Notes under the pieces: generated by a model
Told to the model about the DNA's origin: nothing
Seen by the model: only the letters and a program-made list of their open reading frames with translations
Databases searched by the model: none
Made by a program: the position numbers and the translations under genes
Source: Euglena gracilis
Taxonomy: Eukaryota
DNA length: 64,000 bases
Direction of reading: 5' to 3'
Assembly: GCA_039621445.1 (NCBI GenBank)
Contig: CP154954.1
Span: 42,153,572-42,217,571, forward strand
In this document: one piece after another, positions 1 through 62,700 of the stretch
Numbering within the stretch: position 1 is the first letter of the stretch
Layout: every line of letters starts with the position of its first letter

Positions 1-870
1 GGTTTGAGGCCCAGGGACACCAAGGACGCTGCTGTAGGGGGGGCAGTGGGGTGGCCGGGAGCTGCGCAGGTGGGGGGCAGGCATTTGCTTAAGCACCCCG
101 GGGGGGGGGGGTACTGGCTAGCCAATCGGCTGGACACTGGAAAAAGTGGACTAGCTAGACCCCCCTCCCCCCCCCGGGGGGGGGCTGGGGGGTCTGGGGG
201 GTCTGGGGGGTCCCCTGACTGGAAAAATGAGGCTTTTAACAGGTTTTTGGCTGATTTTGTTCCAAAAATTCCCAAAAATGGCCAAAACCGGGGATTTTTG
301 GCCATTTTTGGGGGTCTCAAAAATAAATTTTGGCGCTTCGCGCCGGTCACTGGAAAAATTTTTTCCACTAGCTAGCCCTGCTAGCAGACCCCCCCCCCCC
401 CGGGGGGGTCTGCTAGAAAACCCACTAGCCAAATTTGGACTAGCTGCAGTCCAGCCCCGCCGGGGAGGGGACGTACTGCAATCCCTTAAGCAAATGCCTG
501 GTGGGGGGTGGGGGGGGGGCGGGGGCAGGGTGGCCAGAGCTGCGGAGGTTGAGGCCCAGGGTGGCCAGAGCTGAGGGGGTGGGCCCAGGGTGGCCAGGGG
601 CTTCGGGGGTTGAGCCAGAGCTGCGGGGGCCGGTGGTTCAGGCGGTGGGGCTCAGGTGGCTGTGCGTAGCACCCCCGTTCCGCGCCGGGAACCCTCGCTC
701 GGCCAGGGCGAACCGAGGCCAAGCGAGGTCATCCGGACACGGCCCGGGGGACGTTGCAGGGATGTGGAGTGGGGTGGCGACGTGGTGTCGTTGCAGGCAG
801 CCTCCTTTGCCACCACCAAAAACCAGGATTGCCAGGAGCAGTGCGGTCAGGGTGGAGTTGAGTTGATGAT
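1..870 (-). CDS. Probable Pro/Ala-rich exon(s), reading frame unresolved; interrupted by the 78-500 element
   Basis: GC-rich, low-homopolymer sequence. The unit ctgggcctcaa occurs on both sides of the insertion. One frame reads PPPAQLPATPTAPPTAASLVSLGLK. No single continuous frame could be established. Confidence 0.35.
78..500. mobile_element. hAT-like MITE / candidate young non-conventional intron (intron 73-503 on minus)
   Basis: Perfect 16-bp TIR CAGGCATTTGCTTAAG (78-93) / CTTAAGCAAATGCCTG (485-500), flanked by an exact 8-bp direct repeat GTGGGGGG (70-77, 501-508). Confidence 0.85.
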
Positions 871-1549
871 CTGCTCAAAACAAAAGAAATTTTTGGTGTT
901 GGAGATATCCTCCTTACCCATTTTTCTCTCTCTCATTCACTTGCGGAATTTACTCAATTTCCCCAAAATCCTTTAAGCAGTTGTATTTTGTGTTCATTTG
1001 CACACCTAACCCGCTGGGAAATTGTCTCCAGACAAATGACAACTCCCTAAAAAGACAGGACAGCGGAAACAGACAATTGCTTGCCGACCCACGGGGTGTC
1101 AAAACGGTCCAAAATAGGCCTTGATGGGGGTTCAAGGAGGTCTCCAAAGCCACAGCATCCTTGGGTTTCCAGTTTGCCGTGGTCTAATGGTAAGGAAAAC
1201 ATGTTGGTTGCAAGAACTGACCACATCTAGATGGGTGCATTCAACCATTTCGGTGGACATGGACCAGGTCCAGACAATTCTTTACTGATCCCCCGGGGGG
1301 GAGGGGGGGTCACTCCAACTTTTTTTTTAAACCCAGTCAGTCATTTTCAAAAAACCAGCTAATCACTACCCCCCACCCGGGGGGGGGGGGTTCGGCCACT
1401 CAGAAAGCCAAAAAAAATTTAGGCCAAAAAAATTTTCCGGCTCCTTCGGCGCCGGGGTCACTCAAGCCACTTTTGCCCACTCCTGGGGGGGGGGGGAGGG
1501 GGGTCCGGGCCAAAAACCAGTCACTCTGAAAAAACCAGTCACCCCACAG

Positions 1550-1672
1550 CTGGGAGGCTGCGGGCGACCTCAGGAGGCTGCATCTGTTGGAGGAGGGTGA
1601 CGTTGGGCGAGGGCGTCGGGGTCGTCGCTGTTGGATCGGCGGCAGCGTTGGTGTGGCGGTGCTGTGGGCTGA
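1550..1672 (-). CDS. Probable exon (PQHRHTNAAADPTATTPTPSPNVTLLQQMQPPEVARS)
   Basis: GC-rich coding-like island between repeat blocks; junctions not resolved. Confidence 0.35.
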
Positions 1673-4733: not shown

Positions 4734-7700
4734 TCAACCCTCCAAGGAATGCCCAGCCAGGGTTTCAACCCTCCCTCTGGGGGTTTGCCATCTCCCCCCA
4801 TTCTGCTTCCCTCCAGGGAATTCCTTGAGCGTCCCCCCCCCCTGGAGGGGGTCAGCTGAAGGAATTCCCTGCCCCAGGCCCATGGGCACCGGGTGCCAGC
4901 CCTGGGCGTGGGCTTGGGCTTGCGTCAAGGATTGTAAAGAAACCACATTTCGACCCAATTATGCTTCATACATACACACCCATGCACACATCTTTGTGCA
5001 AACATGTGATCCGGATAAAACGGCAGGAAACAAAAATGGCGCTATAACTTTGAGGGAAAAATTCCAAGTTTGGAAAATTTTGATGATGGAAATATTCGAC
5101 GTTCTACGGATGGGATGGCAAGGGGCCGATTACAAGTTAAAAGCAGCCCCCCCCCCCCCGCCCCAACTCTTCTCAACATCCCCCCCTCAAATCGACAACC
5201 CTGGGCCATCCCTTTCCAACCATTGACCATTCAAAATGGGATTGCTGCATTTGAAATGAAACCCCGTCCTGGCCAAACAAAGATGGGTCACAGTGTCATG
5301 TGGTGCAAACATGCACAAACAATGCACACACAGACGCCATTAACCCCCCCCCCAAATAATGCCCCCGGGGTATTATTTTTTCACTCAAAATCCCAGCCTG
5401 GGGGGGTATAATTGGGGGGGGGGTGAAAAGCACCCAAATTTTTTTTGAAATTTTTCGAAGTCCCGTGGGACCCAAAGTAGCACCTGAAACCCCCAGGGTT
5501 TGATATAAGGACAGGTGGGGGGGGTGGTCCGGACCCCCCCTGCGGGCCAGGAGGGGGGGGGGTGGGGGGGACATCCCCCGCCCACCTAAACAGTGGCGCG
5601 GTCAGGGTGACCGAAAATTTTTGACCCCCAAAACGACCAAAAGTGCCATTTTGGGCACTTTTTGGGCAAAAAGATGCCAAAAATGCAAAAAATTTCGGCG
5701 CAAAGCACGGAGGAAAAAATTGACCCTTTTGGGGGGGTCCCGTATACCCCCCGAGGGTCTGTCCGGACCCCCCTGGCAGGTGGGGGGGGGTGGTCCGGAC
5801 GCCCCCTGCGGGCCGGGGGGGGGGACCCCACCTAAACCATGTACGCCCTCCTTATATCAAACCCTGAACCCCCCTTTGGGGTCATTTTTTTTTGTACTTT
5901 CTCATGAAATTTAGCATTTTTGGAGGCCAGATGATCCAGAAAAATCGATTTTTTTTGTAATTGGTTCTCAGAGATTGTAATTTCTGCCAACGTTTTCAGG
6001 TCAAAATCCGGGCTGCCGGCCCGAAATTGGGGGGGGGGGTATAAACTCGGTCGCCGAAGTTGGACCACGAGGGGGGGGGGGTAGTATTTGGGGGGGGCAT
6101 CATTTGGGGGGGGGGTATTATTTGGGGGTTTACCATCCTTGGGCATGTCATGTTGGCGATGTTCTCTCTCGCGATCTTCTTCATGTCGTTCACTGCAGCT
6201 TGTTCTTCAGCTTCCTCCACGCCCGGCGTAGGGCATGTGGTCATGTGCAGGGCACAGCACTGGGCTGTGCTGCACAGGGGTGGGGCATTTGAGAAGGCTC
6301 CCCCCATCCCAAGAAAACATGCCTGTCTGATTTCAGAACATACCCCCCCCACCAAACAATCAATTAAACAACAGACTGAAAGTGCTTCAAAAAAGAACAC
6401 AAATTCTGAACAGAAATTTCATTTTTTTGAGCTTCTTCCCCCCCCCAAACCTCGTATTTGTTGCATCTCGTGACATTTTTGTTTGCATTGCAAAATCGTG
6501 GTTTGGAGATTTTTTTCAACAAACTGAAAAAAGGGACCAAAAGAAGCACAAAGCACCGGGGAAGGGATTTTTCTGGGTTTCTGGGTTTCCCCAGACCCCT
6601 GTTCAAAACCAACACTCACTTCTTGCCATGGGGGTCCTGGTTTGCCAGGGCACAGGTGTCTGGGCAACAGGGCAACCCATAAATCTGCCCACCAATTTTC
6701 CTTGAAAAAAAACCACAATTGACCAATGTGGCTTAACAGAATGAGATTCTCCTCAGAAAACAACAAAATAAACAAAAAGGACGAAACAAACGTGCGCAAC
6801 GATAAGTTTCATGTCACTCCAGGATTGCTGGATGCCCACTCATGCTGGCTTTTTAGAACCTGGGGCTGTCCAGACCAACCCACCCTCCCCTGGGGCATGG
6901 GGGGGGGTCCGGGGGGACCGATTTGGGGGAAGTCAATTTTGGGGTCAAAAGAAAAAAATCGCACCGAAAATAGAAGGAAACCCCGCCTCTGGCGGGACAC
7001 CCACTCAGCTGCTGGGGAGGAGGTTCAACCGCCCCCCCCCCCCAACCACAAAACTCTGAACTCATGAACCTCGGGCACTGAACCCTGGCTTGCCCACGGC
7101 TTGCACTGCAGCATTGGCTGGCGGCGCAGCGGGCTCCACCAGCGGCGGCGCTCCAGGCTGCGCCGGCGGTGCGGCAGGCGGTGCGGCGGCAAGCCATTGC
7201 CCTTGATGGGACGGATGGGGTGGCCTGGGTGTCCCATCCCCCCAGCTTTTGTTAAACACAAAGATTGAATTCCTTCGAAACCACCCCTGCGCGGAAGGCG
7301 GGTCCACCGGAGGGTTCTGCCGGGAAGTGCAAGAAAGGGTGCCGAGGGGGGGGTTTGAGGGGGTTAAGCAATGGCCTGCACGGCAGGGGGGTTGCCGAAC
7401 CCGATGGCTTCGAAAAACCAGGCGACCATGCCAGGCGGTGGGGGCGGCTGCCGGTCCCGCCAAACCTGTAGGGGGCTGCGGGTGTTGATGAAGGGGGCGG
7501 GGACTTGGCGGCAGGCTTTTTCCCTTTGAAACTGACATGTGCCTTGTGCCTCGGGGGGGGGGGGGTCAGAGTGCGGCCACCTCCGCCTCCGGGGGTGGGG
7601 GGAGCACTGCACATGGCTTTTGGGCAGGCTTCTTGGTGCCAGGCAAAAAGTATCTGGGCACTCGACCAATGTACATTCAGCTCCAGGGCCGTTTTCAGGC

Positions 7701-10700
7701 AAATTTTAGCCAACGGCCAGGCAGCCACCAGCCCGCCCAGGCACACCTGGCGCAAAGGCAGCACTGCATAAAAAAAAACCTCGACGAAAGAAAATTCTGA
7801 CTGAAAGATCGGCGCCCCGGAAATACGACAAGGCTTGTGAGGTGCGGAATCCACCCTGCCCAGGATGGGGGTAAGGGTGGTCAGGGATCCCCTTCCCTTT
7901 CTCTTTGAGGATTCTTTTCAGCCTTGTCCTGCCCGGGGTGGTGTCGGAAACCATTAGAACACTTTGGGGAGGAGGGAGAGTCATGGCACACCCTGACCAG
8001 GGTTTTTTTTAAGGCCGGGGGGGGGACCACCCACCCACCCACCCCCCCCCCCCCGGAATTCCCTGAAAATGGCCAAAAATTGCGAAAAATGCCAAAATAG
8101 CACCCTTTTCAAAAATTTTCACTGCCGAAAGGTACAACTCACCAGCCCTTGGGGGGTTGTTCGGTGGGACACCCACCCTCCCCGCCCTCCCCGCCCACCC
8201 CCCCCCCAGGGGTCCACGACTAAAAAACACCTCTGACCCCCCTAAAGAAGGGACAAAAAAGAAAAAAATGAGAAAGGAAGCCTGGGTGCAGGACCAGGGC
8301 ATGTAGGCCCAGGTCCCCCAGGCCGCCCGCGGCGATGGCGACCAGGTGGGCCAGCCGCACGCCGTAGTAGGCGGCGTTGTGCCGCCACGCCCAGTCTCAC
8401 TGGCGGGGGGCGGGGGGGGCAGGGAGGGGGCCACACTCCAGCTTCTTTCTACCAACCCCCAGGGCGGTGCCTTGTGCTATGGAGTGCCTGCCCACAACAG
8501 GCACCCGGGGGGGGGGGTTCGGCCCCTGGTGCTTTCCGACCCAGCCTTTTTTGCAAATGGCCATTTTCAGGCCCCCCAGCACCGGTTATGCTGTAGCACC
8601 ACCCCCAGGTGGGGATAAAAATGCCCTCCACCCCACCCCCCAAAACACCTGGAGGGGGAGAGGGGCAGAGTGCGGTGTCACTTTCCTCAATGAGAAGCCT
8701 GGTTACGCTTTCAAATGCAAAGCAAATCAAAACCCATTTCCAGCTGGGGGGGTATTGAGGCAGGGCGTGGCCCACCGTAGCCGTTGCCTTCGACGAGGGG
8801 GCGGAGGCGGGCAGCGGTAGCGTGGACGAGGGCGGCGGCGGCTAGCGGCGGGGGCCCCTTTGCCAAGAGGGGGGGAGGGCGATGCCTTTTCGTTTCAACA
8901 GATGCTGAGAGTCTCGGAAATTGTGAGGAAATGAAATGACCTGAGAGTTGGAAAGCCCCCCCCTTCCGTTTCCACTCTCACCTGAGAATTGAACGTTCCT
9001 TTGAAAATTGACGATCACTCAATTGGCAGGTAGGTGACCGCCCCCCCCCCCAAAGCATACATCAAAACCAAATGAAAATTATTCTGGCTGCCTCTGTAAC
9101 ATATCCAATATCCCATATGTCCCATATATGACAAAATCGATGGACAGACAGCGTAAACTTAAATGGACAGGTGCAAAACATATCTGAATCATGTCCAAAA
9201 GGGGAGTGGGCCAAGAGGGAATGGGTCAGGTGAGTGGCTTTTGGGGGGATCCCAGCCCCCCCCCCGGGTCGGTTCGGACACTCCGGTCCATGGGGGGGAC
9301 GATCCCCCCCCTCTCGCTGAACAATTCGTGAAATCAAACCCTGGTTGAGAGACAATTTGACCAACTACACCCAGGGCAAAAGGCACCCCGACCGCGCTGC
9401 ATGGGTAGCGGCGGGGCACCCACAGCAGCCGTGGGCGGACGTGGTCCACCCACAGCCAGCCGTAGATGCCGGCCACCGCTGCCCATGCCAACGCGTTGGC
9501 CAGGCAGCTGCCGATTGGCGAGATCTGCGGCAGGGGCAGCGCAGATCCTCGGTGGAGCGTGGATCCTTGGTCCTCAGGGGGGTCCCCCCACCCACCCACC
9601 CGCCCCTGGGGGGGGGGGGGTCCCGCGGGACCCCGTCAATTTTCCCCGAAAATGGCCAAAATCGCGAAAAATGCTAAAAATAGCACTTTCTCAAAAAATT
9701 TAGGCGCCGTTGTCGCTGAAAAGTAAATACCACCCCCTCAGGGAGGGGGGGGGGGCGGGCGCACCAACCCTAACCCCCCCCCCAAGACCCCAAGATGCTT
9801 CCCCCACCCACCCAAGACTAAACGGGGCCAAACATGGGTCCGTTAGGGATCGGAACCAATCTGTCAGGGAGGACAAACACCGCAGAGAAGATTTGCCGCT
9901 TTGCCCCGAGAAATGTGTTTGGGGTCGCCACATGTTCACCAACCAGGGTCGGGGGGTTCTTTTGTGAGAAAATCCTCATCGCTCGCCCAGTTTGGGGGGG
10001 GGGGGTGCATTCCTGAAGGGAAACCTGCCTGGTCACCCCCCGACCCAACCATGCGCCGCCCTGCGTGTCCAGCCCGCGGCGCCGATGGCGGTGACGAGGG
10101 GGACGACCCACCACCAGCAGCCGCGGAACTGTGAGACAGGGGGGAAGGGGAATGCAAAGGCACTTTGGGATAATCCCCTGGCTGACAGTGAAAATGCCGG
10201 AAAGAAGCGAAAAACGCCTGGAAATCTGACCAAGAGTTTTTTTTACAAGGCGGGGGTGCCCTGCAGAGGGGGGGTGCCATGCATTCCACCCAAGGGGAAG
10301 GGGAGGTCCGGGGGGGGGGGGGGCATTTTGGAGGGCCAAAACAAACACATCCCAGGTCACAAAAAGTCAAACAATTTTCAGTCCTTCATGCTTAAAATGG
10401 AGGAAAAGTCTGCTCCCAACCTTTCCAAGGTCCAACGATAAAAATCACTCACTTTTTAAAATTTGAAAATCATCATCAAATAATCACCCCCCGTTTTCAT
10501 AAAAACACTCAAGCAGGCCACACACCGAACAGGTCGGCGGCCTGTAATGGCGGGCGGCGTTCTGGGCAGCTTCTCGTGCGGCTACGGCAGGTGCCCACTG
10601 TGAAGGGAAAGGGGATTGGAGCCATTTAAAATAAGAATCATTGGCAGGTGCATCTGGAGTTGAATGCTTCCACAAACCCCAAAGATAACCAAAGCTCAAG

Positions 10701-13700
10701 CGAGAATTATCAGGGGACGGCATCGGAATTGGAAGAAGAATTCTAAATTTTGCAGAAAAAAATTGCCAGATAAAAAAAAATTGAACTATTACACCTAGCG
10801 CCTAAAGTTTTTGCCATGCCTGGCAAAATATTGCCCCAGTGTGACAGAATTTTACTCAAGCCAGCACAAATTTTTGCCCTGTGCCCCAAACGTATTTGCA
10901 CTTGTTCAGAAAAAATTCGCACTCCGTCATATTATCGTTACTACCCGCCCCCCCCCCCAGGGTTCGATATAAGGAGAGGAGGGGGGGGGGGGGTCCGGAC
11001 CCTGCGGGCCAGGAGGGGGGTGGGGGGGACACCCCCCCCCACCTAAACAGTGGCGCGGTCAGGGTGACCGAAAATTTTTGACCCCCAAAACGACCAAAAG
11101 GGCCATTTTGGGCACTTTTTGGGCAAAAATTGGTCAAAAATGCAAAAAAAATTCGGCGCAAAGCGCCGGAGGAAAAAATTGACCCTTTTGGGGGGGGTCA
11201 ATTTTTACCCCCCAGGGTCGGTCCGGACCCCCTTGCAGGTGGGGGGGGGTGGTTCAGACCCCCCCTGCGGGCCAGGAGGGGGGGGGTGGGGGGACACCCC
11301 CCACCTAAACCATGTACGCACTCCTTATATCGAACCCTGGCCCCCCCTTGTCGTACGACCGGGTTCCTGCAACTGATCGGGGGGAGGGGTCGTCACACCC
11401 CCATAACTTGCAACCTGTGACCAGGGGGTGGTCACAAATGAGGGGGGGTTGTAGGTAAGGTGGGGTCGCTGAGCTCTTATCCCTTTATGGGTAAGAGCGA
11501 AGCTTACCACCGTCGAAATCCCCCCCCTCCACCCCCCCCCCCTCCCCCCCCCCCCCCGGGTCGGGGCCACCTGGAGAACCGACGGATTATCACCATGATC
11601 CCGGCCCGGTTCCCGGAATTTTTTTTTTTCAGTCGCGAGCGACTGGATTCCTAGTTTCCGAATCACCTGGGTTTGACCCCCAACTCCCCGCCAGGCCCGA
11701 GTTATTCACGCGCGAAGGGGTCCAAACTCGGTAGGATTTACCCGCCCCCCCTGGATGAGCCCCCCCCCCCTTTGGAGGGCCAAAAAATGTCAATTTTCAA
11801 AATATCTCCAAAATGAAGCCAAATCAAAGGAAATGTCCGGAGACCTAATTTGAAGCCCTTGGAACGCCCCATCCACCGGTATTTTGATTTCCCCGCAACT
11901 CCCCGCCTAGCCCGAGATACGGCCGTTTTCGGCGCAGATGGCCGTTTTGTACACTTTTCCCTCTGTTCGACTTAGCCGTTTTCGGGGGGTGGGGGGTCAA
12001 AAAATCGATGTTTTCAAAATTTCTCGAAAATGATGCAAAATCAAAGGAAATGTCCGGAGACCTAAATTGAAGCCCTTGGAACGCTCTATCTACTGGGATT
12101 TTGGTTTCCCCGCAACTCCCCGCCCAGCCCGAGATACGGGCGTTTTTTTGGCCAATTTGGGCCATTTCAGGCCATTTTGTACACTTTTCCCTTGTTCGAC
12201 TTAGCGTTTTCGGGGGGTGGGGGGTCAAAAAATCGATGTTTTCAAAATTTCTCGAAAATGATGCAAAATCAAAGGAAATGTCCGGAGACCTAAATTGAAG
12301 CCCTTGGAACGCTCTATCTACTGGGATTTTGGTTTCCCCGCAACTCCCCGCCCAGCCCGAGATACGGCCGTTTTTTTTTTGGCCAATTTGGGCCATTTCA
12401 GGCCATTTTGTACACTTTTCCTTCTGTTCGACTTAGCCGTTTTCGGCCAAAAAGTCGAAAAAAATCGCAAAAATTTTTTTTGCCCAAAACGATGTTTTTT
12501 TGGCCTCCCGGACCCAGAAAAACTGTTTTTGAGCCCAAAAAGAACCTTTTTCGACCCGCCAGCCCCCCGTTTTTGGCCCCCCAACCATTTACTTTTGGTC
12601 AAAACCCGGTCAAAAAAAATCAAAAAAAAAAAAAACTGTTAAAAAAAAAAAAACGAGCGTTTTTCGACCCGCCAGCGCCCCGTTTTGGGCCGCCGACCCA
12701 TTGACTTTGGGTCAAAAAAAAAACCGGGTTGAAAAAGTCAAAAAAAATCGAAAAAATTTTTTTTGCCCGAAACGATGTTTTTTGGCCTCCCAAACCCGGA
12801 AAAACTGTTTTTGAGCCGAAAACGAGCGTTTTTCGACCCGCCAGCGCCCCGTTTTGGGCCGCCGACCCATTGACTTTGGGTCAAAACCGGGTCAAAAAAG
12901 TCGAAAAAAAATCGAAAAAAATTTTTTTTTGCCCGAAACGATGTTTTTAAAAAAAACTGTTTTTGAGCCGAAAACGAGCGTTTTTCGACCCGCCAGCGCC
13001 CCGTTTTGGGCCGCCGCCGACCCATTGACTTTGGGTCAAAACCGGGTCAAAAAAAGTCGAAAAAAATCGAAAAAATTTTTTTTTGCCCGAAACGAAACCC
13101 GGAAAAACTGTTTTCGGGCCGAAAACGAGCGTTTTTCGACCCGCCAGCGCCCCGTTTTGGGCCGCCGACCCATTGACTTTGGGTCAAAAACCGGGGTCGA
13201 AAAAGTCGAAAAAAAATCGAAAAATTTTTTTTGCCCGAAACGATGTTTTTTGGCCTCCCCAACGAAAAAAAATGTTTTTGAGCCGAAAAACGTTTTTGCG
13301 CGAGTAAAATCGAAAAGAAAAAAAAAACTATTTTAGAGAAGAAAACGAAAATTTTTCGACACGCCAGCGCCCCGTTTTGGGCCGCAGACCCATTGACTTT
13401 GGGTCAAACCCGGGTCAAAAAAGTCCAAAAAAAACAAAAATTTTTTTTTTGCCCAAAACAATGTTTTTTGACCTCCCGAAACAAAAAAAACTGTTTTTGA
13501 GCCGAAAACGAGCGTTTTTCGACCCGCCAGCGCCCCGTTTTGGGCAGCCGACCCATTGACTTTGGGTCAAAACGGGGCCGAAAAAGTCAAAAAAATCGAA
13601 AAAAATCGAAAATTTTTTTTTTGCCCGAAACGATGTTTTTTGGCCTCCCGGACCCGGAAAAACTGTTTTTGAGCCGAAAACGAGCGTTTTTCGACCCGCC

Positions 13701-23813: not shown

Positions 23814-23864
23814 ATGGGCAGGGGTGGCATTGGGGAGTGCCAGCCAAGGGGAAAGGGAAGTGAT

Positions 23865-26632: not shown

Positions 26633-26974
26633 TCACAACAGTTAGCTGAATTCGCGGCTTTTGACGCCGCTACACGTCTTGCTGCTCGCTTGGGTTGGAA
26701 TGCTCTGACATATGTCGGGGACAACATGGGCACTTGTTGGCTGGCCACACACCTGAGGCCCGCACTTTCTAACAAACCACTCTCGGACATGGCGCGCAAG
26801 ATCTTAAACCGGTGCTTGTGGTCTCGATTACAGGTACACGTGATTCAATGCCCCACACACATACAGCCCGCCTACCCCCTGTCTCGAACCATCCCCACTT
26901 CCATCGCTCAAGTAATCCAGGCCGTCGCTGCCGCGCACGACCTGTGGGACAAACTATGCCACCAACCGAACTAG
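26633..26974 (+). pseudogene. Retroelement RNase H remnant, DIRS/tyrosine-recombinase type
   Basis: SQQLAEFAAFDAA...TYVGDNMG...VHVIQCPTHIQPAYPLSR matches the AE..A / DN / N-P-A-D-x-L-S-R pattern, with the last Asp replaced by Tyr. Confidence 0.65.
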
Positions 26975-38790: not shown

Positions 38791-38821
<31 letters not shown>

Positions 38822-51500: not shown

Positions 51501-54500
51501 TTTTCTCAAACCCCAAAATGTGGGTCCTTCCCAGCTGGGGCAGCCCCCATCCCACCCCCCAACCGGCCAATGGGCACCCTCTGCCCAGCCCCGGCCTCAG
51601 CGTCGCCCTCCAGATCGCCCTGATGCCGGAGGAGGGCCTCGTGACGGGCAGCGACCGTTACGGGGTGCTCTACACCGCTGGCCACGACCGCCTGCCGGCA
51701 CTCGGGCTGTGCTTTGCGGTGGGGCTCGGCCGCCCTCCTCCTTCGGACTCCGACAAGGGGAGGCGTCGGGGGGCTGCTTCCACTCTTGCATAAGGTCACC
51801 ATTCGTATTCGGGCTTTCAATCCTGTTACAAGAGTGGTGCGCCCTTTTCATGGTCATCCCTCTGACCGCCCCCTGTGGGTGTTGTCAGTCTATGGTATGA
51901 GGCTGCCTCCTTCCCGGTTGGGAAGTTGCAGTTGCGGGAGGTCGGCCGGCCGCGATATCGGAGGAGGACACCCAGGCAGAGGGGCTGCGGCTGGTGCTGA
52001 CCTACATCGAGCGGCAAAACAATTTGACAAACACCTCGCAGGAAATCTTGGGCAGGCCTTGCCTTGTGCAACATTGTACACACCGTCACCCTTTTTGCCT
52101 TGCGGTCAGGTTCAATGGCGCAGTCCTATTTTTGTGTTCATTTTCTATGCATGTCCACTTGGTGGGTCAAAAATTAAAGCAAGTGATTCAGTGGGTTGTC
52201 CTTTTTTTTATAATTTCCAACTGCTTTTTATGGCCACATTCACAATGACCTGACAGGAAATGCCAAATGGACGAGGGAAAAGTACAATCGGGGGTAGACA
52301 GCATTAAATAAAAGGGTTTTTTTGTGGACATTGGGGAATGGAAATAATTCTCTCCCACTTGTGAAATTTGGCCTTTACACTTAATTTTGATGTAGGGTGC
52401 CCTACCCAAAACACTTGTGGTCATTTGACTTGTGCCAAATCTGAGGATCTGTACAAACCGAGAATCCGTGAGCAAAGAATAAGCTGTGTACTCAATGTAC
52501 AAATATCAGTGGGCATAGGCGTCTTGGCCAGCCCCAGGAGGATTGGGAGTGGATCCAAAATGCCCCATACTTCTCCAGGTTTTGGTTCCAAAGCCTCTTG
52601 TATGGGGACAGTAGGGTGTGGAACCTCAGTCCACCAAACCCAGGAATCAAAAGCATAGCACTGCAAGCATTACGGGCCTGGGGCTTGGAAAATCAAAACA
52701 ATTGGATTAAGGCGTCAGCCACTTGGTCTGTGGTGGCTTCGTGGGGGGGGACCCCCATTTACTCCAAAATTACCCACAGAAGCGTAAACACATTCTGGTA
52801 ACGCTTCAAACTGGGGTTTCTTCCCAGGAAATCGTTAATGGTTTGAATCTGTGCTTGTTTCCCCTCCAAAATTTGCCTGAGCAAATTTTCCTATAATCCT
52901 AAAATCCTTTGTCCAATACACCTTTCTCACCCTCGGGGTGAGCCACTCTCAAGGGGTAGTTGTTCCACACACAAAAGACAGGCGATGGAATATGGTCATT
53001 TTTGGGTCTGTTTTGCAATGAAAGATCACAAAAAATGACTGCCAGAAGACCAAAAATATTGAGATTTACCATCATTTTCTTTGAGATGTTTGATTTCCCC
53101 ATTCTTTTTTCAGAGAACCAAAATTTTTTGTTATTTGCTTTTTCTGTATTTCTTTCTGTATATTCCATTTGTCTCCAAAGTTTTTTTGTCTTCTTGTGTT
53201 TTGAACGGGGATTAAATATTTTTTTCCCATCTGTGGTAGCAACTGCTTGCTCAAGGTGCTGAAAATTGAAGTCTTTTCTGAAGAAAAATAAAATGCACAA
53301 GAGATAAAACGAAAAAATTGTAAAATAGTTGAATGATTGTCCCATTGAACTGCCCCAACTTCTGTCAGTTCCCTCCAGCAATCTGGCAGGACCCTTGCCA
53401 CCTGAATGGAAGTTGTTAGGGTCCCCACGTCGGCAGTCATGGCGTGGCTGGTCCACCTGCCACTTGGGTGCCCGTCACACCCCCATTCCTCGGAGGCAAC
53501 GGCGTGCCGCGGATGGCGAAGGCCGTGGCGGGGGTGCGGCAGGCGGACATCGATGGGCCGGAGGACTTCCGGTACCTGACGAGCCTGCGGTTCTCCAGCC
53601 AGTGCCGCCCGCCACCACTGCCCCCCCCCCCAAAGAAAGACAACCTAAAATTGTCGGAGTTCTGAAAGGGATTGGGGTTAGGGTTTGACGAATAGGATGA
53701 AATGGACCAGAATTCATGCCTAAAGTCGGACCACTGTTACACTTAACTGCCTAATTTGGCCTAAATCTTTTCCCTGATCCTTTTCCCAACGCCAACCATA
53801 ACCCTGACCCTATCCCTGCGTGTTTGAAAAGTGGACCCCCATTTAATTTGAATCCCATCCATAAAAGGGGTTATTGTTATTTTTTATTTGTGCGTTTTAT
53901 AATTTGGGAATTCATCCCCCGCCAGTCGGGCAGATGCTGATGAGAGAGAGATGCTCTTTCAGCTTGAAAGAGAGCACATACCATACAGGTGTGGGTGTTT
54001 TTATTCCAAGAGGATTGTTTGGGTACAAACAACAGTTGTACCCACGACACCAGCAGAATATCACATGAGAAATGAATCAACGGCCAACAAAAATAATTAC
54101 ATGCATATCATATGTGTAGATGGCAGCTCCCGCATATATATCTACATATAACATGCATAATCCTTTAATCCCATAATCCATTAATCCATGCATGATCCGA
54201 TAATCCTTTAATATATAACTGCACATATCCTTTATAAATGAATTCACCAATCGTTCGTTTTTTTTATGTATGTTTTTCCCCATATTTTTTCTTCCCATGA
54301 TTTTTGCACCGACTGCAACAGCCCCATGCCCATTGTTGCTGTGCTGTGGCCCGGAGCACCCCCCCCCCCCCCCGACCCCCACTGGGCAGGGCGGCGCCCG
54401 CAAAGTCTGCGGTGCGGGGAGGGGCTTGACGCCGCCGCCCCCATCCTCCGTGCCCTGCAGGGGGAGTCGGGCGTCACGCTGGGCGACGACTACCGCCCCG

Positions 54501-57500
54501 TCCTGGTCATCTCGGCGTACACGTACCTCCCGGCCCTCCAGGCGGCGCTGGAGCTGAAGGTCGCCCACGGGGCTGCACGTTGGCTCTGCAACAGGTGGGA
54601 AGCACTCCCCAGCCTCCAGCACTGTGACAATGCACACTACACGAGGTCTAAAGCACACCCCCAGGGTTGACGTTTTCTTTAAAAAAAAACACAAAAAAAC
54701 ACGTTTTCTAAAATCAACTAAATTTTTCCCCTTTTTTTTAAAACTGCAAAATGCACATTTTTGGTTCAAAAACACCTTAGGCGGTCGACTTCGCACTTAA
54801 GCTGTTCAGAAGTTCTTTGCGCAATCGCACCAGTTCAGAAAATAATTTTTGTGCTCCATCCTTCGCTAGCAAAACGAGGTTCATCCCCTTTTTGTGCTTT
54901 CGACTGGGCTGACTCCGGCTGGTTTTTAAGTGGCCTCTGGGAGATGCCCAGCCCCAACCCCCCCCCCCTTCTTTGGCTAGTGGCACGTTTTTGGCGATCG
55001 ACAGAGACGATGTCTAGCAACCTGAGAATGGGGGAAAACACACAAAAACACTTTTTCCCCTTGGTGCTGGCACAAAAGCCTTGTGGAAAAAAGGCCCCCT
55101 TTTCGTTTAAATCGGCGAAAACCCCGTGAAAGAGGTTTCTGAAAAGCTTCTTTCCCCCCATTTCCTCCCAATAGAAGAGCGGGGCCGCTGTAAGCGCAGG
55201 GTCCAAATAAGGCGCTCCCCCGCGACGGTCCGCTACAAGTCTCAAGTCCGCTACAAGCCCCCCATTTTGATGGAATTTCTAAAGGAAATCAACAAAAATC
55301 ACGCGGCTAGGGTCCAAATGAAAACGTAACCCCCCGCTGTAAGTGCGCCAGCGCTTGTGCTAGGGGGGGGGTCGACTTTGGGATCAGGGGATGTGGACCA
55401 GTGAAGAAAAGCCACGGAGCACCAGTTTGGGAAGGTTGAGAGGTCTGGAATGTGGGGAGAGAGTTATTGATGTTTTCAGGGTGTCGGCAGGCGTGAGTGG
55501 TGAGGGCACCGGTTACAGCCCACAACCGGCCAACGGGGAAGGGCTCTGGGAGCCAGGGTTGGAAGATGTGCTAAAGGACGTTTTCCCTGGTTTTAGAGGA
55601 TGGAAGTTGGCGCCGCGTCTTTATTGTGAAGTGGAAGGGGACATTGCCACTGAATGGGATGTTGAAACAATGGAAGCTCTTGCACAATGCGCAAAAGAGT
55701 TGGTGTGCCGAGTTGTTTGTTTCAAACTGAGTCATGCACCCCCTGATTTTCATGGGGAAATGAAGCTGCTCGGAAAGGCCGACAGGATCCACTGCTACAG
55801 ATGCCTTGGGGACAGGCGTGGCAAAACACAGTAGGAGATAAATTCTGTCAATCTGTCAACAGTATCAGAAGCCCTTGTTTTCACCGATATGTAGAGTCCA
55901 TAGAGTAAAGACTTTTTTTTTCAGCACCCCGTGGGAATGGGAAGTGAAGAATTGTATTTATTTTTGAAACTCAGTTGCGCAATTGCGCAAGTGTTTGAAA
56001 TTTACACGCCTTTGCGCAATTACGCAAGCAGCTTTTTGGTTTTTGTTTGCGCGGTTGTGCAACGAAAGGGCGATAGGACTCTGGACATCCCGAACCCGTC
56101 ATTTTTGTCCCAAACGGCAGCCATTCTGGCAGCAGTTGTTGCCAGGCAGATACTCTTCGGAGCTTGTGAACTTGTCGATCAGCTCCCAGGTTCTTATCTG
56201 TGAAATTTGACTGCGTCTGAATGCGGCTCTCCCAAAAGGGCGAAAGGGGGAAAAGATACGGAGGAAAAAATGATGGGAAAAAGAACGATGGGAATAATTG
56301 GGGCACCCAATCATTTATGTTTCCCATCATTTTGCCTGGACCGTAAAATTAGGATTTCCAACATCAGATTAGGATTTTGGCTCCAAAAATTAGGAATATC
56401 TGGTGGTTTTCCAAAGAAACCTTTTAAGTCCACTTCACCCGAAATGGATTTGGCCAAGTCCACTTTACCCCAAAATGGACTTGGCCAAGTCCACCTTACC
56501 CCAAATGGACTTGGCCAACTCCATTTTACCCCAAAAGGACATTGCCAAGTCCACTTTACCTCAAATGGACTTGGCCAAATCCACTTTACCGCAAATGGAC
56601 TTGGCCAAGTCCACTTTTCCCCAAACGGACAAAATATTTTCTTAGAACCCTAGATGACAAATTAAAACAACAACAACAATAGTTATTTTTTGAAAAATAA
56701 CGTTTTTTTTAGTAAAAAAACTATCAACTTTGGCAAAAGGCCAAGCCATTTGCAAAAGAAATGCTGACAAACTGGACCAGACAGATGGCTGATTGTTGGT
56801 CATCATTCTCAATTTTTTTTCAAGAAAATCGCCCAGTCAAATTGAAGGCACAGTGACCTTGCAAGAGGAAGCGAAGCACTGCTTGGTCACTTGGCGTGAG
56901 CGATCGCAAGCAACCCCTGTACTCGTGGTCACGCTGCCCAAAGAAATGCTCCAACAGGGTGCCTTTCTGTTTGCTCTCCAAACCAGGACGTCCTCGGCGA
57001 TCCCCGCCGCCCTGTGTGGGGGATGCCTCCGAGGCCGAACAGCCCTCCATCACCGTGGCCAGCCGCCCAGGCTGGGGTGCCCCCCCAGTTGCACTGAGGC
57101 TTCTTGTCCGTTTATGACTTAACTTCGCTTCTGGCCCAGTTTGTGTGGTGTGTCTGGGGTGCCCCCCCCCCCTCCAGCAGGACGGCTGTGGTGGGTGGGG
57201 CGGGGGGGGGGCACCTCGTGAGACAGGGCTGGGCCGGGCCACCCCCCCCCGCCGCCCACCCCGGCGCTGCGGGCCGCCTGGCGCTGCTCTGTGTGGAGGC
57301 GGCGGCGTGCTGCCTGGTCGCCCTCGCCTTCATCATCAAGGCCATTGTGGCGTGGATCGAGAAGGTGTGGGCGGAGGGCCAGCGCACGGTGCGGGACCAG
57401 CGCCGAGGCCGGCCCCCGCTTTTTTTTTTTTTCTTTTTTTTTTTTATTTTTTTGTTTTTTTTTCCTTTTTTTTTTTGCCTTTTTTTTCTTGTTTATTTTT

Positions 57501-57607
57501 TTTGTTTAATTAGTTTTTTGGTTTTTTTTTTTCTTTTTTTTTTTTTTTTCTTTCTTTTTTTTTTTTTATTTTTCTTTTTTTTTTGTTTTCTTTTGTCTTT
57601 TTTTTTT

Positions 57608-57658
<51 letters not shown>

Positions 57659-58330
57659 TTTTTCTTTTTTTTTTTTTTTTTTGCCTTGCCCCTTGCCCTG
57701 GGCCCGTGGACACCGCCGGGTGGGGGACTGGGTGGGGGGAGGGCAGCCCCTGTCTCAGCATCATTTTCCCCTTTGGGGGGCGCTTTGGGGGGGCGTTGGG
57801 GCCGCTGTTTCCGCCGCCCGTGTCCCCCTGGGGGCGGCGGGGGCGTTGTGGGGGGCGGCCTCCCGCCGGCAGCAGCTGCTGACCTTCCTGGACCGGATGT
57901 ACCCGGCGTCCGTTGGCCAGCCTGCCGGTCACAAGCCAGCCCTCCTCAGCCGCAAAATCCACCCCTACCCCTTTCCCCAGGCCAATGATCAAACCTGTGT
58001 TTGCAGGAAGAGGATGATCAACGGATGAAGTGTGCCAAAAATGTCCTACAGCAAACGGGCAGCACCGCACCGCACAACAGCGTCGCCCACACTGCCCCCG
58101 TGACCGGCCGCCTGCCGTTGCCCGGGACCTCATCCTGACGCGGCCGCGGTGCGGTGGTATGATCAGCTTCATGGTGGCGGTGCCCCACGCCTCCGTCGTG
58201 TTCGCGGACATCCACGGCTTCACCAGCACCTGCCACCGCCTCACCGCGCAGCAGCTGATGGCCGGGGCTGCCCCAGTTCCAATGCGCTTTTCGTTCTCTG
58301 GCCTCCATCTGGCCCAAAGCCTTCCTGATG

Positions 58331-58396
<66 letters not shown>

Positions 58397-60688
58397 AAGA
58401 ATGGTTCATGCGTGCGGGTGTGTGTGCACTTGTCCTTCATGTGCATGCAGGTTGACCAAAGATTCTCAAACAAAATTTTTGGTAAGGACACAAATTTTGC
58501 TGCATTTTTTTTAACTGTAATTTCCAACCGGTTTCCCAACCAGGCGTCCGTTCAAGGGCTCCCAGCCAGCACCTGCCCGTGGGTTGGGCCAGATCCCGAG
58601 GCAGACCTTCCTCGGGTACACGTTCAGTGTGATGGACGTCGTGGCCAGCCGGGCCGGGATGTGCCGCGTGAAGCTGGTCGGGGACTGCTACATGGCGGTG
58701 GCTGGGCTGCCGGGCAGCGCTGACACGCCGTGCCGCAGCGCCGTCTTCTTCGCCACGTGGTGTGCCCAGGTCTTCAGCGACCGGCCTGCCCGCTGTGCAT
58801 GAACCCGAGCTGAGTCGTGTGGGGAATCTCACTGTCTTGACGCCAAACCCCACTGGTGTTTGTTTTCACCTGGCCCCTCCCCATGCCTGACAGGAATGGT
58901 GGCATGGTTGGTGTGATTGATCCCCGGGCCACGCATAATCCCTCTTTGATTTGACAAATGGATGATTGGAAACGAAGGAGGGGTGCCCGCCTGGGCAGGC
59001 ACTCCAAGGCACTCCTGATCCGACCTCCCCCCCGTGGGGGGTAGCGCACACGGCCAAAAGTGCCCTAGCACAGACCCCAGCGCCGAAGGCGCAGGGGAGC
59101 CAAGAATGGCCTATTTTCAAAAGAATGTGCCTGGGCACATGCCGAAATCAGACCCCATTAGTTGCACTAAGGCTTCTTGTCTGTTTATGGCTGGCGCCAA
59201 CTCCGCTTCTGGCCCAGTTTGCTGTGTAGTGGAGAAAGTTGTCAGACAGTCATGGTCCTCGCCGAAGTTTCCTGGGAGGGGCAAAGAAAGGGAACATGAC
59301 AGCTTGACATCGACCACCCCAGCACACCTTTTTGCCAGGAAGAGGTTCAAAGTATCATGCAAGCGTCATTCTTCCTAGCACAGGTATTTGCTTTTTGTGG
59401 TGTGTTCATTTCATTTTTTTTTGGTCATCAGTTTAGCTGTCTCAAAGCGTGGTGAGGGGGGTCGTCAGAAGGCAATGTGCAACAGCAGTCTTAGCGAGCC
59501 TTTTTGCTTTGTTCTGTCTCTTCCCTGTTTCGGGGGGGGGGGGTGGGCATGGAAGGCCATTGCGGCACAGGGGGGCAGCGGGCGCTACACCCACCCGCTG
59601 CAGAACCAGGCCACCATGGACGGATTGGCCGCCTTGGCTTGCAACAAGGGGCCCTGGCCGGACCCGTGGCGCACCGATTCCACCACCACCAGTGAGATCG
59701 GGGCCGGGCTCTATGGCTTCGCGTATGTGTGTACGTGCGTTCGTGCGTGTGTCCATTTGTGCATTTGTGCATTTGTGCATTTGTGCGGTGCGGTGCGTGT
59801 TTGCGTGTGTGTGTTTGCGTGTGTGTGCGTGTGCGCGCGCGCGTGTGTGTGTGTGTGTGTGTGCATGTGTGTTCCGTGTGTGCCCCAAGTGATCGGTGTG
59901 TTTGCCATTAAGAAAGGCTTGCGCCGCTGCCTTGATGCCTGCCTCCGCCCTCAGTGGCGCTGGGCGAAGTGAAGTGCCGTCCCTGGTGGAACCCGCAGGC
60001 CATGACGCTGGCCGGCCACGGCACGCCGTGCGTCCTGCGGTACGGCATCGCCACAGGCCGCGTCACGGCGGGCGTCCTCCCCGGCAACACCCCGCCCGCC
60101 CCGGCGCTGCTCCCCCCCCTACGACCCACCCCCCTGGTCGGAGGAGAGATTATCATTGGAGGGGACAGTCCTGTGTTTCTGCATTCTTGTGGACACTGCC
60201 GCTGCTGTTTTCGCCCCTGGGTGTTGCTAACCGTCAAAAGCCAAGAGCAGGCATCAACTCAAACCCGCCAATGCAGCCAAGTCTGCCCCGAAGATGTTCA
60301 GCGGGTAGTTTTGTTGCCCCAAAGTGGTTGACTTTTGCTTTCCACCGCGGCGCTGCTTTGCCGCTGTTGTGTGATGCCGGGGGTTCCGCCTGCCTGGCCT
60401 CTTCCAACCCCCCCCCCCCCATGCCTCGTCCCTCCGGCCACGCGGGGGCCGCCGGGATCCTGGACGTGTGGGGCAAGGTGGTCACCTTCGCCAACCAGAT
60501 GGAGCGCCTCAGCCAGCCGGGGCGGGTCCTCCTCTGCTCCCAGACGTACAAGTCTGTCACGCCCAGGGCGGCGGGCAGCCTGCCCGCCCGGCAATGACGT
60601 ACTCCTTTAGGGGGCGGCGACCTCTGGAAGGGGGGACAGGTGTCCTTGCCACCAGGTAAAGGTCAGACAGGGAGACAGACACATACAC

Positions 60689-60730
<42 letters not shown>

Positions 60731-62700
60731 GGACTTGCATGCATTGATGCATGCGTGCATATATGTATGTATGCATGCATGATGCACACATCATTCATGC
60801 ATACCAGGGCGTTGCTTACCTCCCCCCCCTTGTCCAACGACTGGCCTTGTCCCCCGGTCAGTAGCGATCTTTTTCCAGGTAATCTTTTTTTCAGACGTTC
60901 GCGTTCTTTTTCTTACAACTTTCATGGCAGATTTTGTACCGAGTTAGCCAGCACATACGGGAGCCTATGTGTTGGTGCCTTGTTGATTGCCGCACGTTTC
61001 TCCCTTTTTTTCATCATGAATCTGAGAGTTGTGGCCATGTCAGGCAAAGGAAACTTTTTTTCTTCACCTTGGGGCAAAGCAGGAGGAAAAAATTTTGACC
61101 CGGTCTTGTCTAACGGCCACCCCCCCGGTCAGTAGCGAAAATAGCGACCCCCCCCCCCCACGGTCAGTAGCCATGTTCAGCGGTCGTTGGACAAGGGGGG
61201 GGGGGGTAAGAAAAATTTGATCCCCCCAGGGGGGACCCTGCCAGCCAAGCCTTTTTCCAGCTGGCAGCCCTTTTCCAGCCCCGGACCCCCTCCCCCCATC
61301 AACGAGATTGATTTATTTCCGGCCGCCCGAAGGGTGGCTAGACGGCAACAGATTTTTCACTTCCAGGAGGTACAGAAATGGGCCAAAAATGGGCCAAAAA
61401 TGGCTTAGAAAAGGGTTGGCAAGGGCAAGGAAATCGTTGTTTTTTTTTAATTGGCAGTTTTTTGGACATTTTTGTGACTTCATTTTTTTGAACCCGGTTC
61501 GACCCCAAGTCGGGCCCAGCTCCAGCCTGGGACACCTATGGGGCGGGGAGGGAGGGGGTCAGCCAGCAGCCTTTTTCCAGCCAGCTCACGTTTTCCAGCC
61601 CCTGAGCTGGACCCCCCGGGAGTCCTAAGCAACTCCCTGATGCATACATACAGACATGCATTCATACATACAGAAAGAGAAATGGACAGACAGACAGACG
61701 GACGGACGGACGGACAGATGGACATACACAGGGATAAAAGTGAATTTATTCACCTTATCTATTCTCCTCTGAGTTGCATGTCAAACAAAACAAACACATG
61801 AAAGCTTTGCTTTTGCAGTTTGATTTTTTTCTTCTGCTTTTTTAAAAAAGGAGGAACCAATTGTTGTTTTTTTTGCCCCGGTTTGGCCCTGCGGGGTCCT
61901 GGAACGGCGCCGGATCTGGGCAAACTCGGTCGACTGGGGGAGATTCGGCACTTAATTAGAAGGATAGGGCTAGGGTTGGGATTGGCGCGCCGAAAATTGG
62001 CACTTTTGAGGGACCCAGTTGGGCCGGACAGTGGGTTCCGTTTTGGGAAGATCCTGAATCGCCCGTTTTTCCCAAAAATGCCCGAATTCGACCCAAATTC
62101 CCCCAAAATTCGCCCGCTGTGCAGCCGAACTCCTCCCTGAATTCCGAAACGAGGGGGCCTCCGGGAATCCGGCCGCGACCCTAACCCCATCCCTAAAAAT
62201 AGCCCGACTTTCGCCTGAGGGTCGGACGGGGGGATGCTACATGGACCACTCCCCTGGAGCTACTATTTGGCCCGCGGGCCAAGTTGTAGCTTGCTGCGAT
62301 TTCTTCCATCAACTTTTTGCAGCTGTCTTCATTTTTGGCTGCCGAGAGCTTTCGCCCCTCCTCGTCCCCATGGGGGTGGGGACCCGCTCTCGGCTTCCAA
62401 AAAGTCTATGCGGCCGAGCGAGAGGCCCCGGTGCCCGGCCTCCCCGAAGCCCGGACCACATCCTGGGCCGCAACCTTGATGCCTCCCGGGGACCCCCTCC
62501 CCCCGGCCCTCCCCGGGGTGGGGCCCTCCGCCCTGGCCCCGGCGGACGACGTCGCCAGCCACGCCTTCACGTTCGAGGACGGCCCGCCGCTGCCAGCCCG
62601 CCCCTCGCCCAGCGCCGCCGCCACCAGCCACTTCGTCCGCTCCGCCCGCGGCCTCCCGCCCTGCCTCGTGCCTGGGGGGGCCCCGGCCGACGTCCCCGAC
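39501..62700 (+). CDS. Multi-exon gene: membrane receptor-type class III adenylate/guanylate cyclase-like protein (EF-hand-like N-terminus, TM, three Cache-like repeats, TM, cyclase domain)
   Basis: Hand-spliced exons: 39501-39607(?), 40291-40385, 40945-41036, 42573-42642, 43431-43691, 44189-44248, 44376-44461, 45946-46076, 46478-46625, 46865-47067, 48144-~48275, ~48823-48907, ~49014-49169, ~50385-50458, ~51599-51723, 51954-52049, 53533-~53605, ~54397-54562, 57022-~57064, ~57275-57401, 57868-57914, 58120-58259, 58604-58782, 59584-59680, 59968-60094, 60457-60560, 62541-~62700. Motifs: VVFADIHGFT, VKLVGDCYMAVAG, LRYGIATGRVTAGVL, ILDVWG, MERLSQPGRV. Start codon and last exon (possibly ~63575-63852) not resolved. 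Confidence 0.85.
41037..42572 (+). other. Non-conventional (intermediate, AG-ending) intron
   Basis: 18/20 inverted repeat CCCAGGGCGGCTGCACTGCC / GGCAGTGCAGGCGGCCTGGG; direct repeat GACAGA at both junctions; joins QTFAT|DGLVHVDQ. Confidence 0.8.
43066..43332. mobile_element. hAT-like MITE family B copy (reverse orientation)
   Basis: CAG...CTG ends; TSD ATTTGTAT / ATTTGCAT (7/8). Confidence 0.75.
47068..48143 (+). other. Non-conventional intron
   Basis: aaaCAGGGGTGGG ... CCCACCCCTGagccc; joins AVQA|RFAEQQ in frame. Confidence 0.8.
49257..49865. mobile_element. hAT-like MITE with a nested TA-type MITE (49271-49410)
   Basis: TIR CAGGGGATTTCTTA / TAAGAAATCCCCTG; flanks TTTGTTGC / (TT)TTTGTTGC; internal part homologous to ~34725-35020. 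Confidence 0.8.
51248..51402. repeat. G-rich minisatellite (GGGGAGTGTGGGG(GTAA/TGACA))n
   Basis: Directly visible. Confidence 0.85.
54397..54562 (+). CDS. Exon encoding the best-preserved Cache-like repeat
   Basis: PILRALQGESGVTLGDDYRPVLVISAYTYLPALQAALELKV resembles the G..G...DYRG..V..AY..L pattern of Cache sensor domains. Confidence 0.75.
56425..56630. repeat. 30-bp tandem repeat CCAAGTCCACTTTACCCCAAATGGACTTGG x~6.5, each unit a hairpin
   Basis: The unit contains CCAAGTCCA...TGGACTTGG inverted arms. Confidence 0.9.
57420..57682. repeat. ~260-bp poly-T-like low-complexity tract inside an intron
   Basis: Almost pure T. Confidence 0.9.
57915..58119 (+). other. Non-conventional intron retaining a near-perfect 8-bp TSD
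   Basis: Stem CAGCCTGCCGGTCAC / GTGACCGGCCGCCTG; flanks CCGTTGGC / CCGTTGCC; joins MYPASV|ARDLIL. Confidence 0.85.
58120..58259 (+). CDS. Cyclase domain exon with first metal-binding Asp
   Basis: ASVVFADIHGFTSTCHRLTAQQLM. Confidence 0.9.
58333..58395. repeat. (TG)n microsatellite
   Basis: About 31 perfect units. Confidence 0.95.
58604..58782 (+). CDS. Cyclase domain exon with K-x-x-G-D motif
   Basis: TFLGYTFSVMDVVASRAGMCRVKLVGDCYMAVAGLP. Confidence 0.9.
59968..60094 (+). CDS. Cyclase domain exon
   Basis: CVLRYGIATGRVTAGVLPGNTP. Confidence 0.9.
60457..60560 (+). CDS. Cyclase domain exon
   Basis: ILDVWGKVVTFANQMERLSQPGRVLLCSQTYKSV. Confidence 0.9.
60561..62540 (+). other. Non-conventional intron containing nested MITEs
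   Basis: gccCAGGGCGGCGGGC ... GCCCTCCGCCCTGgcccc; removal skips the TGA at 60595 and joins YKSVT|ADDVASH. Confidence 0.8.
60805..61639. mobile_element. hAT-like MITE with a nested TA-flanked MITE (60819-61206)
   Basis: TIR CAGGGCGTTGCTTA / TAAGCAACTCCCTG with exact 8-bp TSD ATGCATAC. The inner element has TIR CC(T)CCCCCCCTTGTCCAACGAC and a TA duplication. Confidence 0.9.

Follow-up and report, generated by a model that had tools for sequence, protein, structure and literature searches.

We analysed a stretch of 64,000 nucleotides of Euglena gracilis nuclear DNA (assembly GCA_039621445.1, contig CP154954.1, forward-strand positions 42,153,572 to 42,217,571), which we call the window and whose own numbering is used throughout. 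The window is G+C-rich, repeat-rich eukaryotic DNA, and on its plus strand lies a gene, apparently for a receptor-type class III cyclase, that is broken by many nonconventional introns. One of these introns, 57915-58119, is at the same time an element whose ends form terminal inverted repeats (TIRs), flanked by a nearly intact 8-bp target-site duplication (TSD); the link between element and intron is established for this intron and not for the intron class. We think it reasonably probable that elements with 8-bp TSDs, by inserting, gave rise to at least the younger of the nonconventional introns. A bolder reading goes further, and we give it a probability of about 0.45: the 3-nt/5-nt asymmetry of the splicing code is not arbitrary but fits the 8-bp stagger with which one resident transposon superfamily with CAG termini, probably hAT, cuts its target, and insertions into exons with a purine at TSD position 6 are erased exactly from the RNA. 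We further infer that the intron class as a whole may have its origin in such elements.

The proposed mechanism would run as follows. By the published Euglena rule, which is unlike that of the spliceosome, the ends of a nonconventional intron pair with one another, and the cuts fall 3 nt upstream of this helix and 5 (sometimes 6) nt downstream of it, with the next exon starting with a purine. The same DNA carries non-autonomous DNA transposons, the inverted termini of which begin with CAG (or CAA) directly beside the 8-bp TSD. If such an element entered an exon, in either orientation, the nonconventional machinery would remove the element together with exactly one copy of the TSD, since 3 + 5 = 8 – a matter of arithmetic, not of measurement – and this exact removal would restore the reading frame that existed before the insertion. 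Older introns would since have lost the identity of their TSDs and most of the TIR. A model in which hAT insertions become introns had been put forward in an initial annotation made from the sequence alone; its geometry is sound and one intron is indeed both things, whereas the hAT assignment is unproven and the class-wide flank signal is not significant.

Where the nonconventional introns of euglenids come from, and why their spacers measure 3 nt and 5 nt, are standing questions. Should the spacers be the halves of one 8-bp TSD, the origin becomes testable on existing genomes and RNA-seq, and the class of transposase to be sought is narrowed. Such a correspondence would also account for nonconventional introns reaching 70% in a Euglena genome, for the pyrimidine-purine context shared by the junctions and for the many introns whose borders can slide. 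The host's RNA excision would then fit the geometry of transposon integration, and transposons could flood coding sequence without harm.

Elements with 8-bp duplications and intron 57915-58119

The window contains about 10 TIR elements that end in CAG...CTG or CAA...TTG and have 8-bp TSDs (Table 1). Terminal pairs of the form CA[AG]...[CT]TG that were complementary at 11/14 or better numbered 684; the flanks of 9 of them matched at 7/8 or better and formed a separate tail, far above chance, since the 40 block-wise dinucleotide shuffles that served as the null gave 0.375 on average and 2 at most. When duplication lengths of 2 to 12 were tried, only 8 fitted in the elements that are not of low complexity. 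The TSD match is 8/8 in five elements, 7/8 in three and 6/8 in two. For the free elements 14545-16322, 16374-16624 and 60805-61639, the inverted CAG...CTG ends and the direct repeats beside them, identical at 8/8, were recovered as they had been described, and the TSD-like 8-mers noted previously were also borne out, at 8/8 for 78-500, 7/8 for 57915-58119, 6/8 for 22483-22790 and 5/8 for 57402 and 60561.

Some of these elements fall into families. Elements 5494-5866 and 10958-11339 belong together (86% over 407 nt), and the MITE (a miniature transposable element with inverted repeats) at 16374-16624 has a related copy at 43066-43332 and partial copies at 8059-8119 and 9579-9734. As the copy at 43066-43332 lies within an intron supported by RNA and brings an 8-bp TSD of its own, elements of this kind insert within the cyclase gene. 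The 1778-bp element carries arrays of 32-bp units just inside both of its TIRs, at 14579-14705 (x4) and 16127-16286 (x5), which look like transposase-binding repeats. Element 22488-22787 corresponds to a segment, 22483-22790, that had been regarded as a candidate intron of a minus-strand open reading frame (ORF) with PEPEPL repeats.

Intron 57915-58119 unites the two kinds of feature, and its initial placement lies within the 6-nt ambiguity of the RNA joint 57909>58115. The variant retained in the mRNA is the one to be expected if the cut falls at TSD position 6 or earlier. The minimum free energy fold, the energy of which is unexceptional for the composition (z 0.74), includes the terminal helix. 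A flank match of at least 7/8 was seen in 1/240 cross-paired null pairs, compared with the 7/8 of this intron. The trait that typifies introners, an intron that consists of an element and of sequence derived from the TSD and is bordered by TIR and TSD, is found in this one RNA-supported intron.

Splice joints of the cyclase gene and the register of the terminal helix

Three successive plus-strand exons match PF00211, the class III cyclase catalytic domain, collinearly (58117-58257 to profile positions 8-30, 58605-58781 to 35-69 and 60457-60558 to 124-153), and we therefore take the gene to encode a receptor-type adenylate/guanylate cyclase; exons further upstream encode a transmembrane helix and a coiled segment. 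A protein search with exon 54401-54562 returned no homologue.

Splicing was tested over 42544-62543 with two probable RNA contig sets, one run of RNA raw reads and one DNA-like run, and 15 joints were listed, besides 238 others. The first RNA contig set contains 15/15 of the listed joints and the second 14/15, and all 15 are present in the RNA raw reads at 2-9 reads each; the DNA-like run, the coverage of which over the skipped parts resembles genomic DNA, has 0/15. Among the joints listed the intron borders are GT..CT, AA..AT, GT..CC, GC..TC, AG..CG, CA..CT, GC..GC, GG..CG, CG..CG, GC..GG (x3), CC..TG, GG..CA and CG..GG, and in none are they GT..AG. A 16th intron follows from the coordinates of an RNA contig record, which allow just 171 nt of exon between 57273 and 57909, so that the intron there must be 466 nt long. 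The stem rule puts GAGGCCG/CGGCCTC at 57402-57867, exactly 466 nt, matching this independent arithmetic.

Two other introns named in the initial annotation, 51724-51953 and 54563-57021, agree with RNA joints to the base. The totals given there (17 plus-strand introns joined in frame at the 3/5 offsets, about 8 more with a small shift and at least 4 in a minus-strand gene) were not reproduced. The candidate introns 40386-40944 and 78-500 and those of the minus-strand gene fall outside 42544-62543. The candidates 44249-44375 and 46077-46477 are absent among the joints listed; they leave a clean protein-like frame and fit a 486-nt contig constraint non-uniquely, and enumeration of gene models for 43431-47065 under that constraint gave 1430 open solutions. 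A 30-nt loose-end consensus from the same test had no match within the window. Back-joints of the cyclase introns, as would mark circular RNA, were not seen among the joints listed.

The published noncanonical code, 5'-N3CDG-/-CH'GN5-6|R, was defined by knock-ins (PMC12501133). We counted helix register over offset pairs (a,b), each from 0 to 9, scoring at least 4 contiguous pairs that start a nt in and end b nt from the end, with sliding allowed. It can be seen that a helix at exactly 3/5, starting at +4 and ending at -6, is present in 12/16 RNA-supported introns, and that at unrelated offsets the count is 0-4. High counts elsewhere come from this helix taken one step inward (4,6: 11), from further steps in that register, and from sliding. 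The introns that deviate are described in Table 1. Exon position +1 is a purine in 16/16 introns (G in 12 and A in 4), as is intron +1 in 16/16, and a pyrimidine stands at exon -1 in 14/16 and at intron -1 in 11/16. This matching pyrimidine-purine context at the two junctions fits the expectation for cuts made at the same position of a TSD.

Some further features of the gene were noted. Introns 44493-45140 (CAA/TTG), 57402-57867 (GAG/CTC), 49172-50121 (GGG/CCC) and 45178-45950 (AGG/CCT) lie outside CDG/CH'G yet in the 3/5 register. Micro-exons with RNA joints on both sides occur between nonconventional introns at 45141-45177 (37 nt), 50122-50159 (38 nt), 57022-57061 (40 nt) and 50411-50457 (47 nt). 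Probable conventional introns are seen at 43693-44170 (GTGAGG...pyrimidine tract-CAG) and about 59694 (GTGAGA), neither of them among the joints listed, and the gene seems to mix conventional and nonconventional types. Long introns hold very high-copy repeats (49214-49880, 58552-59218, 52549-53215 and 51882-52548), where the word depth of the DNA-like run exceeds that of exon bins by a factor of thousands. At 58655-58755 and other exon positions, the RNA contigs and the DNA-like run have several substitutions relative to the window in common, which points to a strain or allele slightly unlike that of the window as the source of the public runs.

Table 1. Introns, elements and related features, in window coordinates
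Feature	Position	Strand	Details
Nonconventional intron that is also a TIR element	57915-58119	+	core 57918-58114, CAGCCTGCCGGTCAC / CAGGCGGCCGGTCAC (13/15); flanks CCGTTGGC / CCGTTGCC (7/8)
RNA-supported part of class III cyclase gene	42643-60455	+	exons bounded by 16 introns
RNA-supported introns 1-5	42643-43430, 44493-45140, 45178-45950, 49172-50121, 50160-50410	+	RNA joints
RNA-supported introns 6-10	50458-51597 (+1), 51724-51953, 52050-53511, 53606-54400 (+1), 54563-57021	+	RNA joints
RNA-supported introns 11-13	57062-57272 (slidable by up to 6), 57402-57867, 57910-58114 (slidable by up to 6; placed at 57915-58119 by the 3/5 rule)	+	
RNA-supported introns 14-16	58260-58603, 58782-59582 (+1), 60094-60455	+	RNA joints
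Deviating intron	57062-57272	+	CAG...CTG at 3+6 (57065-57275), the tolerated N6 case as published
Deviating intron	52050-53511	+	mismatch at third pair; register kept
Deviating intron	60094-60455	+	outer helix imperfect: 5 pairs in register after an unpaired first pair
Deviating intron	50160-50410	+	helix register unclear; 4 extra letters at joint in one contig set
Putative last intron	60561-62540	+	would join in frame; stem CAGGGCGG/CCGCCCTG at the 3/5 offsets; flank match 5/8
423-bp non-autonomous TIR element	78-500		16-bp perfect TIR CAGGCATTTGCTTAAG, CAG...CTG; TSD GTGGGGGG 8/8
373-bp element	5494-5866		TIR CAGGGTTTGATATAAGGA (18/18); TSD ambiguous, poly-C flank
382-bp element	10958-11339		TIR CAGGGTTCGATATAAGGA (18/18); TSD 7/8 (low-complexity C run)
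1778-bp non-autonomous element	14545-16322		28-bp TIR CAGACATTCATTTAGTGTGG...; TSD ACCCCCCC 8/8; without Pfam-recognisable ORF
251-bp MITE	16374-16624		CAGGGTTTTTTTTTAAG... termini; TSD GCACCAAC 8/8
300-bp TIR element	22488-22787	-	CA[CT]ACCATTGCT, 12 bp with one G.U; flanks GCTGAGAC / GCTGAGGG (6/8)
200-bp element	30604-30803		CAAGACTGGGCA...TTG termini (12 bp), CAA...TTG ends; TSD GGTGTGTG 8/8
651-bp element	37176-37826		CAGGGTTGACG / CAAGGTTGACG termini (15/18); TSD TACTGAAG / TACTTGAG 6/8
267-bp copy of 16374-16624 family	43066-43332	-	TSD ATTTGTAT / ATTTGCAT 7/8; nested in RNA-supported intron 42643-43430
835-bp element	60805-61639		CAGGGCGTTGCTTA / CAGGGAGTTGCTTA termini; TSD ATGCATAC 8/8; inside putative last intron 60561-62540

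Alternative explanations and the transposon superfamily

Several observations weigh against the introns having arisen from transposons as we propose. The initial annotation had suggested scoring the identity of the flanking 8-mers against controls and against stem perfection, and no significant excess emerged when 8-mer identity per intron was compared by permutation with a cross-paired null over the 16 RNA-supported introns. Summed identity was 51, the null being about 45 (mean 2.83 per intron; p=0.16), flanks of at least 6/8 occurred in 2/16 introns (p=0.115, not significant), and TIR quality against TSD identity gave a rho of 0.39 (p=0.13). The bin of intron 57915-58119 has a word depth of 33.9 in the DNA-like run, which is single-copy-like, and this intron is therefore not in an abundant recent family. 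No intron core in the window has a full-length match, be it to a second intron core or to a free element, and most intron termini are unlike those of the free elements beyond CAGG. Strict CDG/CH'G triplets are present in 6/16 introns (CAG/CTG x2, CGG/CCG x3 and CTG/CAG x1); in contrast to the strict code of published euglenid introns, 10/16 have other triplets, CAA/TTG, GAG/CTC, GGG/CCC, AGG/CCT and CAC/GTG among them. The purine at intron +1 could reflect what the enzyme requires and not a heritage of the TSD, and the pyrimidine-purine context shared by the junctions may just as well stem from a preference of the enzyme. Stems of at least 5 pairs at the 3/5 offsets gave 28,588 candidates in 3.3 kb of G+C-rich DNA, and chance stems are so common that short helices alone prove little; stem-based prediction of introns was dropped for this reason. 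Lastly, no transposase of any DNA-transposon superfamily was matched by Pfam in 252 of the window's 662 ORFs of at least 60 amino acids, the other 410 (low-complexity or G/P/A/R-rich) having been excluded beforehand. The weak class-wide flank signal fits a few young introns among many old ones, and fits one chance case plus noise equally well; because it suits both, our confidence is moderate.

A potential explanation that retains the transposon origin is that the superfamily is not hAT, and that the elements are instead Merlin, P-like or of an undescribed kind, also with 8-bp duplications. We consider this rather unlikely. The hAT label is unproven, being drawn solely from the TSD length of 8 and the CA[AG] termini. 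The hAT dimerisation, BED and RNase-H-like domains had no Pfam match in the same 252 ORFs nor in targeted single-ORF scans, and hAT motif searches on six-frame translations of the window yielded nothing convincing. Literature searches turned up no paper joining Euglena with hAT elements. A hAT transposase fragment had been ascribed to an element with CAA...TTG ends, for which we found no hAT match; the long CAA...TTG pair at 31419/35184 was rejected as a set of element termini, as it is the inner part of a 190-bp inverted duplication and its flanks are not direct repeats. This duplication (31348-31536 / 35068-35251, 84% identity) surrounds about 3.5 kb, and its inner part mimics a CAA...TTG TIR.

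The termini themselves speak to both sides of this question. The terminal consensus of hAT elements is YARNG, and Ac, hobo, Hermes and Tol2 are examples of hAT elements that typically start with CA[AG]. The first three bases of this consensus fit 10/11 elements and all five fit 5/11. Merlin is the candidate with a record in the species, two families with 8-bp TSDs having been reported in E. gracilis, and its termini start with 5'-GG in all families described (PMC8101967, from the available part of the text). Merlin resembles the elements found here in its TSD (8-9 bp in Merlin, 8 bp here) and in having TIRs (near-perfect in Merlin), but its TIRs begin with GG, whereas those here begin with CAG or CAA: a GG start was found in 0/11 elements and a CA[AG] start in 10/11. 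The Merlin domain DDE_Tnp_IS1595 had no match in the ORFs scanned.

It is also possible, though unlikely, that the agreement is a coincidence: the 3/5 geometry would be set by the splicing enzyme alone, the elements would be ordinary transposons in intergenic DNA and existing introns, and the introns would be of other origin, for example converted spliceosomal introns or de novo hairpins. The non-significant TSD remnants over the 16 introns and the ease with which short G+C-rich helices arise by chance are what would be expected in that case; most free elements, as well as the nested copy, sit outside exons, and conversion between intron types has also been proposed (PMC3935182). Coincidence does not readily explain why intron 57915-58119 joins a 13/15 TIR with 7/8 flanks in exact register, why the free elements end in the very CAG...CTG that is demanded by the published code (PMC12501133), or why the sequence context is alike at both junctions. 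Finally, it is very improbable that the direction was the reverse, with excised circular intron RNAs (3 nt + core + 5 nt) reverse-transcribed and integrated to seed the repeats, for although nonconventional introns are released as full-length circles (PMC11282704, PMC12501133) and ORFs at 26615-28028 give weak reverse-transcriptase-like leads, a copy derived from a circle would hold the 8 spacer nt internally and not as a target duplication, the 8-mers of the free copies differ between sites and are identical on both sides, the signature of staggered-cut DNA integration, and the subterminal arrays of the 1778-bp element are typical of transposase-binding regions.

Relation to known systems and other features of the window

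The introns described here share the traits of published euglenid nonconventional introns, namely no need for GT-AG, a terminal helix, spacers of 3 and 5 nt and a purine at the acceptor (PMC12501133, PMC3935182, PMC11282704, PMC11170887, as far as the available text of each goes). Such introns make up 71.8% in E. agilis, and fully synthetic 50-bp hairpins with N3/N5 spacers were spliced precisely after knock-in to an exon (PMC12501133). The same source states that intron origins "remain unclear" and names MITE-like elements, in general terms, as a possible source; nowhere does it use the words hAT, TSD or target site duplication. A MITE origin had been proposed in 2013, with direct repeats noted at the junctions, at a time when, according to the available part of that text, no transposable elements were known in euglenids (PMC3935182). 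Euglenid introns have also been drawn with TIRs and "TSD" repeats, without length or superfamily, in PMC11282704, from which the word hAT is absent. In their available parts, the published papers on euglenid introns name no superfamily or TSD length; in the window the introns are adjoined by free elements that have the same termini and exact 8-bp TSDs. The correspondence between an 8-bp TSD and the 3 + 5 spacers was not found stated in the literature searched, subscription-only papers and supplements aside. We conclude that the splicing rule, its test by synthetic knock-in, the idea of a MITE origin and the TSD-like repeats are already published, and that the 8-bp/hAT correspondence appears to be the sole new part, a refinement of a published hypothesis and not a new kind of system.

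The closest parallels lie outside the euglenids. In maize, the hAT element Ds is reportedly spliced from transcripts as a de novo intron, as Giroux et al. are said to have described in 1994. Cryptic spliceosomal sites serve for the removal of Ds, which is usually imprecise. The elements of the window are like Ds in being non-autonomous and probably hAT-type with an 8-bp TSD, and in that an exon insertion would act as an intron; unlike that of Ds, their removal would be exact by construction. The introner elements of Micromonas, dinoflagellates and other organisms, which are spliceosomal introns derived from DNA transposons, likewise insert into exons with TIRs and TSDs, the intron being the element plus TSD-derived sequence and the message being restored (PMC11282704, in its available part). 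Introners are removed by the spliceosome through splice sites in the element or TSD, with TSDs of 3-8 bp (PMC11282704), whereas here the rule is one that measures a helix, with the duplication split into 5 and 3 by both cuts.

A few other features of the window were recorded. No Rfam match was found within it. The minus-strand ORF 22773-24524 consists of PEPEPL(D/G)(K/E) repeats with a low-complexity match to Trypan_PARP, and removal of candidate intron 22483-22790 adds 20 residues to it before the stop. The plus-strand ORFs at 26615-28028 are without Pfam match and have weak language-model leads to reverse-transcriptase- or RNase-H-like clusters, not to hAT; the nearest cluster of one of them is mostly from Euglenozoa, and the region is possibly a decayed retroelement. 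An A+T-richer block of tandem or dispersed repeats occupies 12449-13818, with many self-matches of 120-500 nt at 80-90%.

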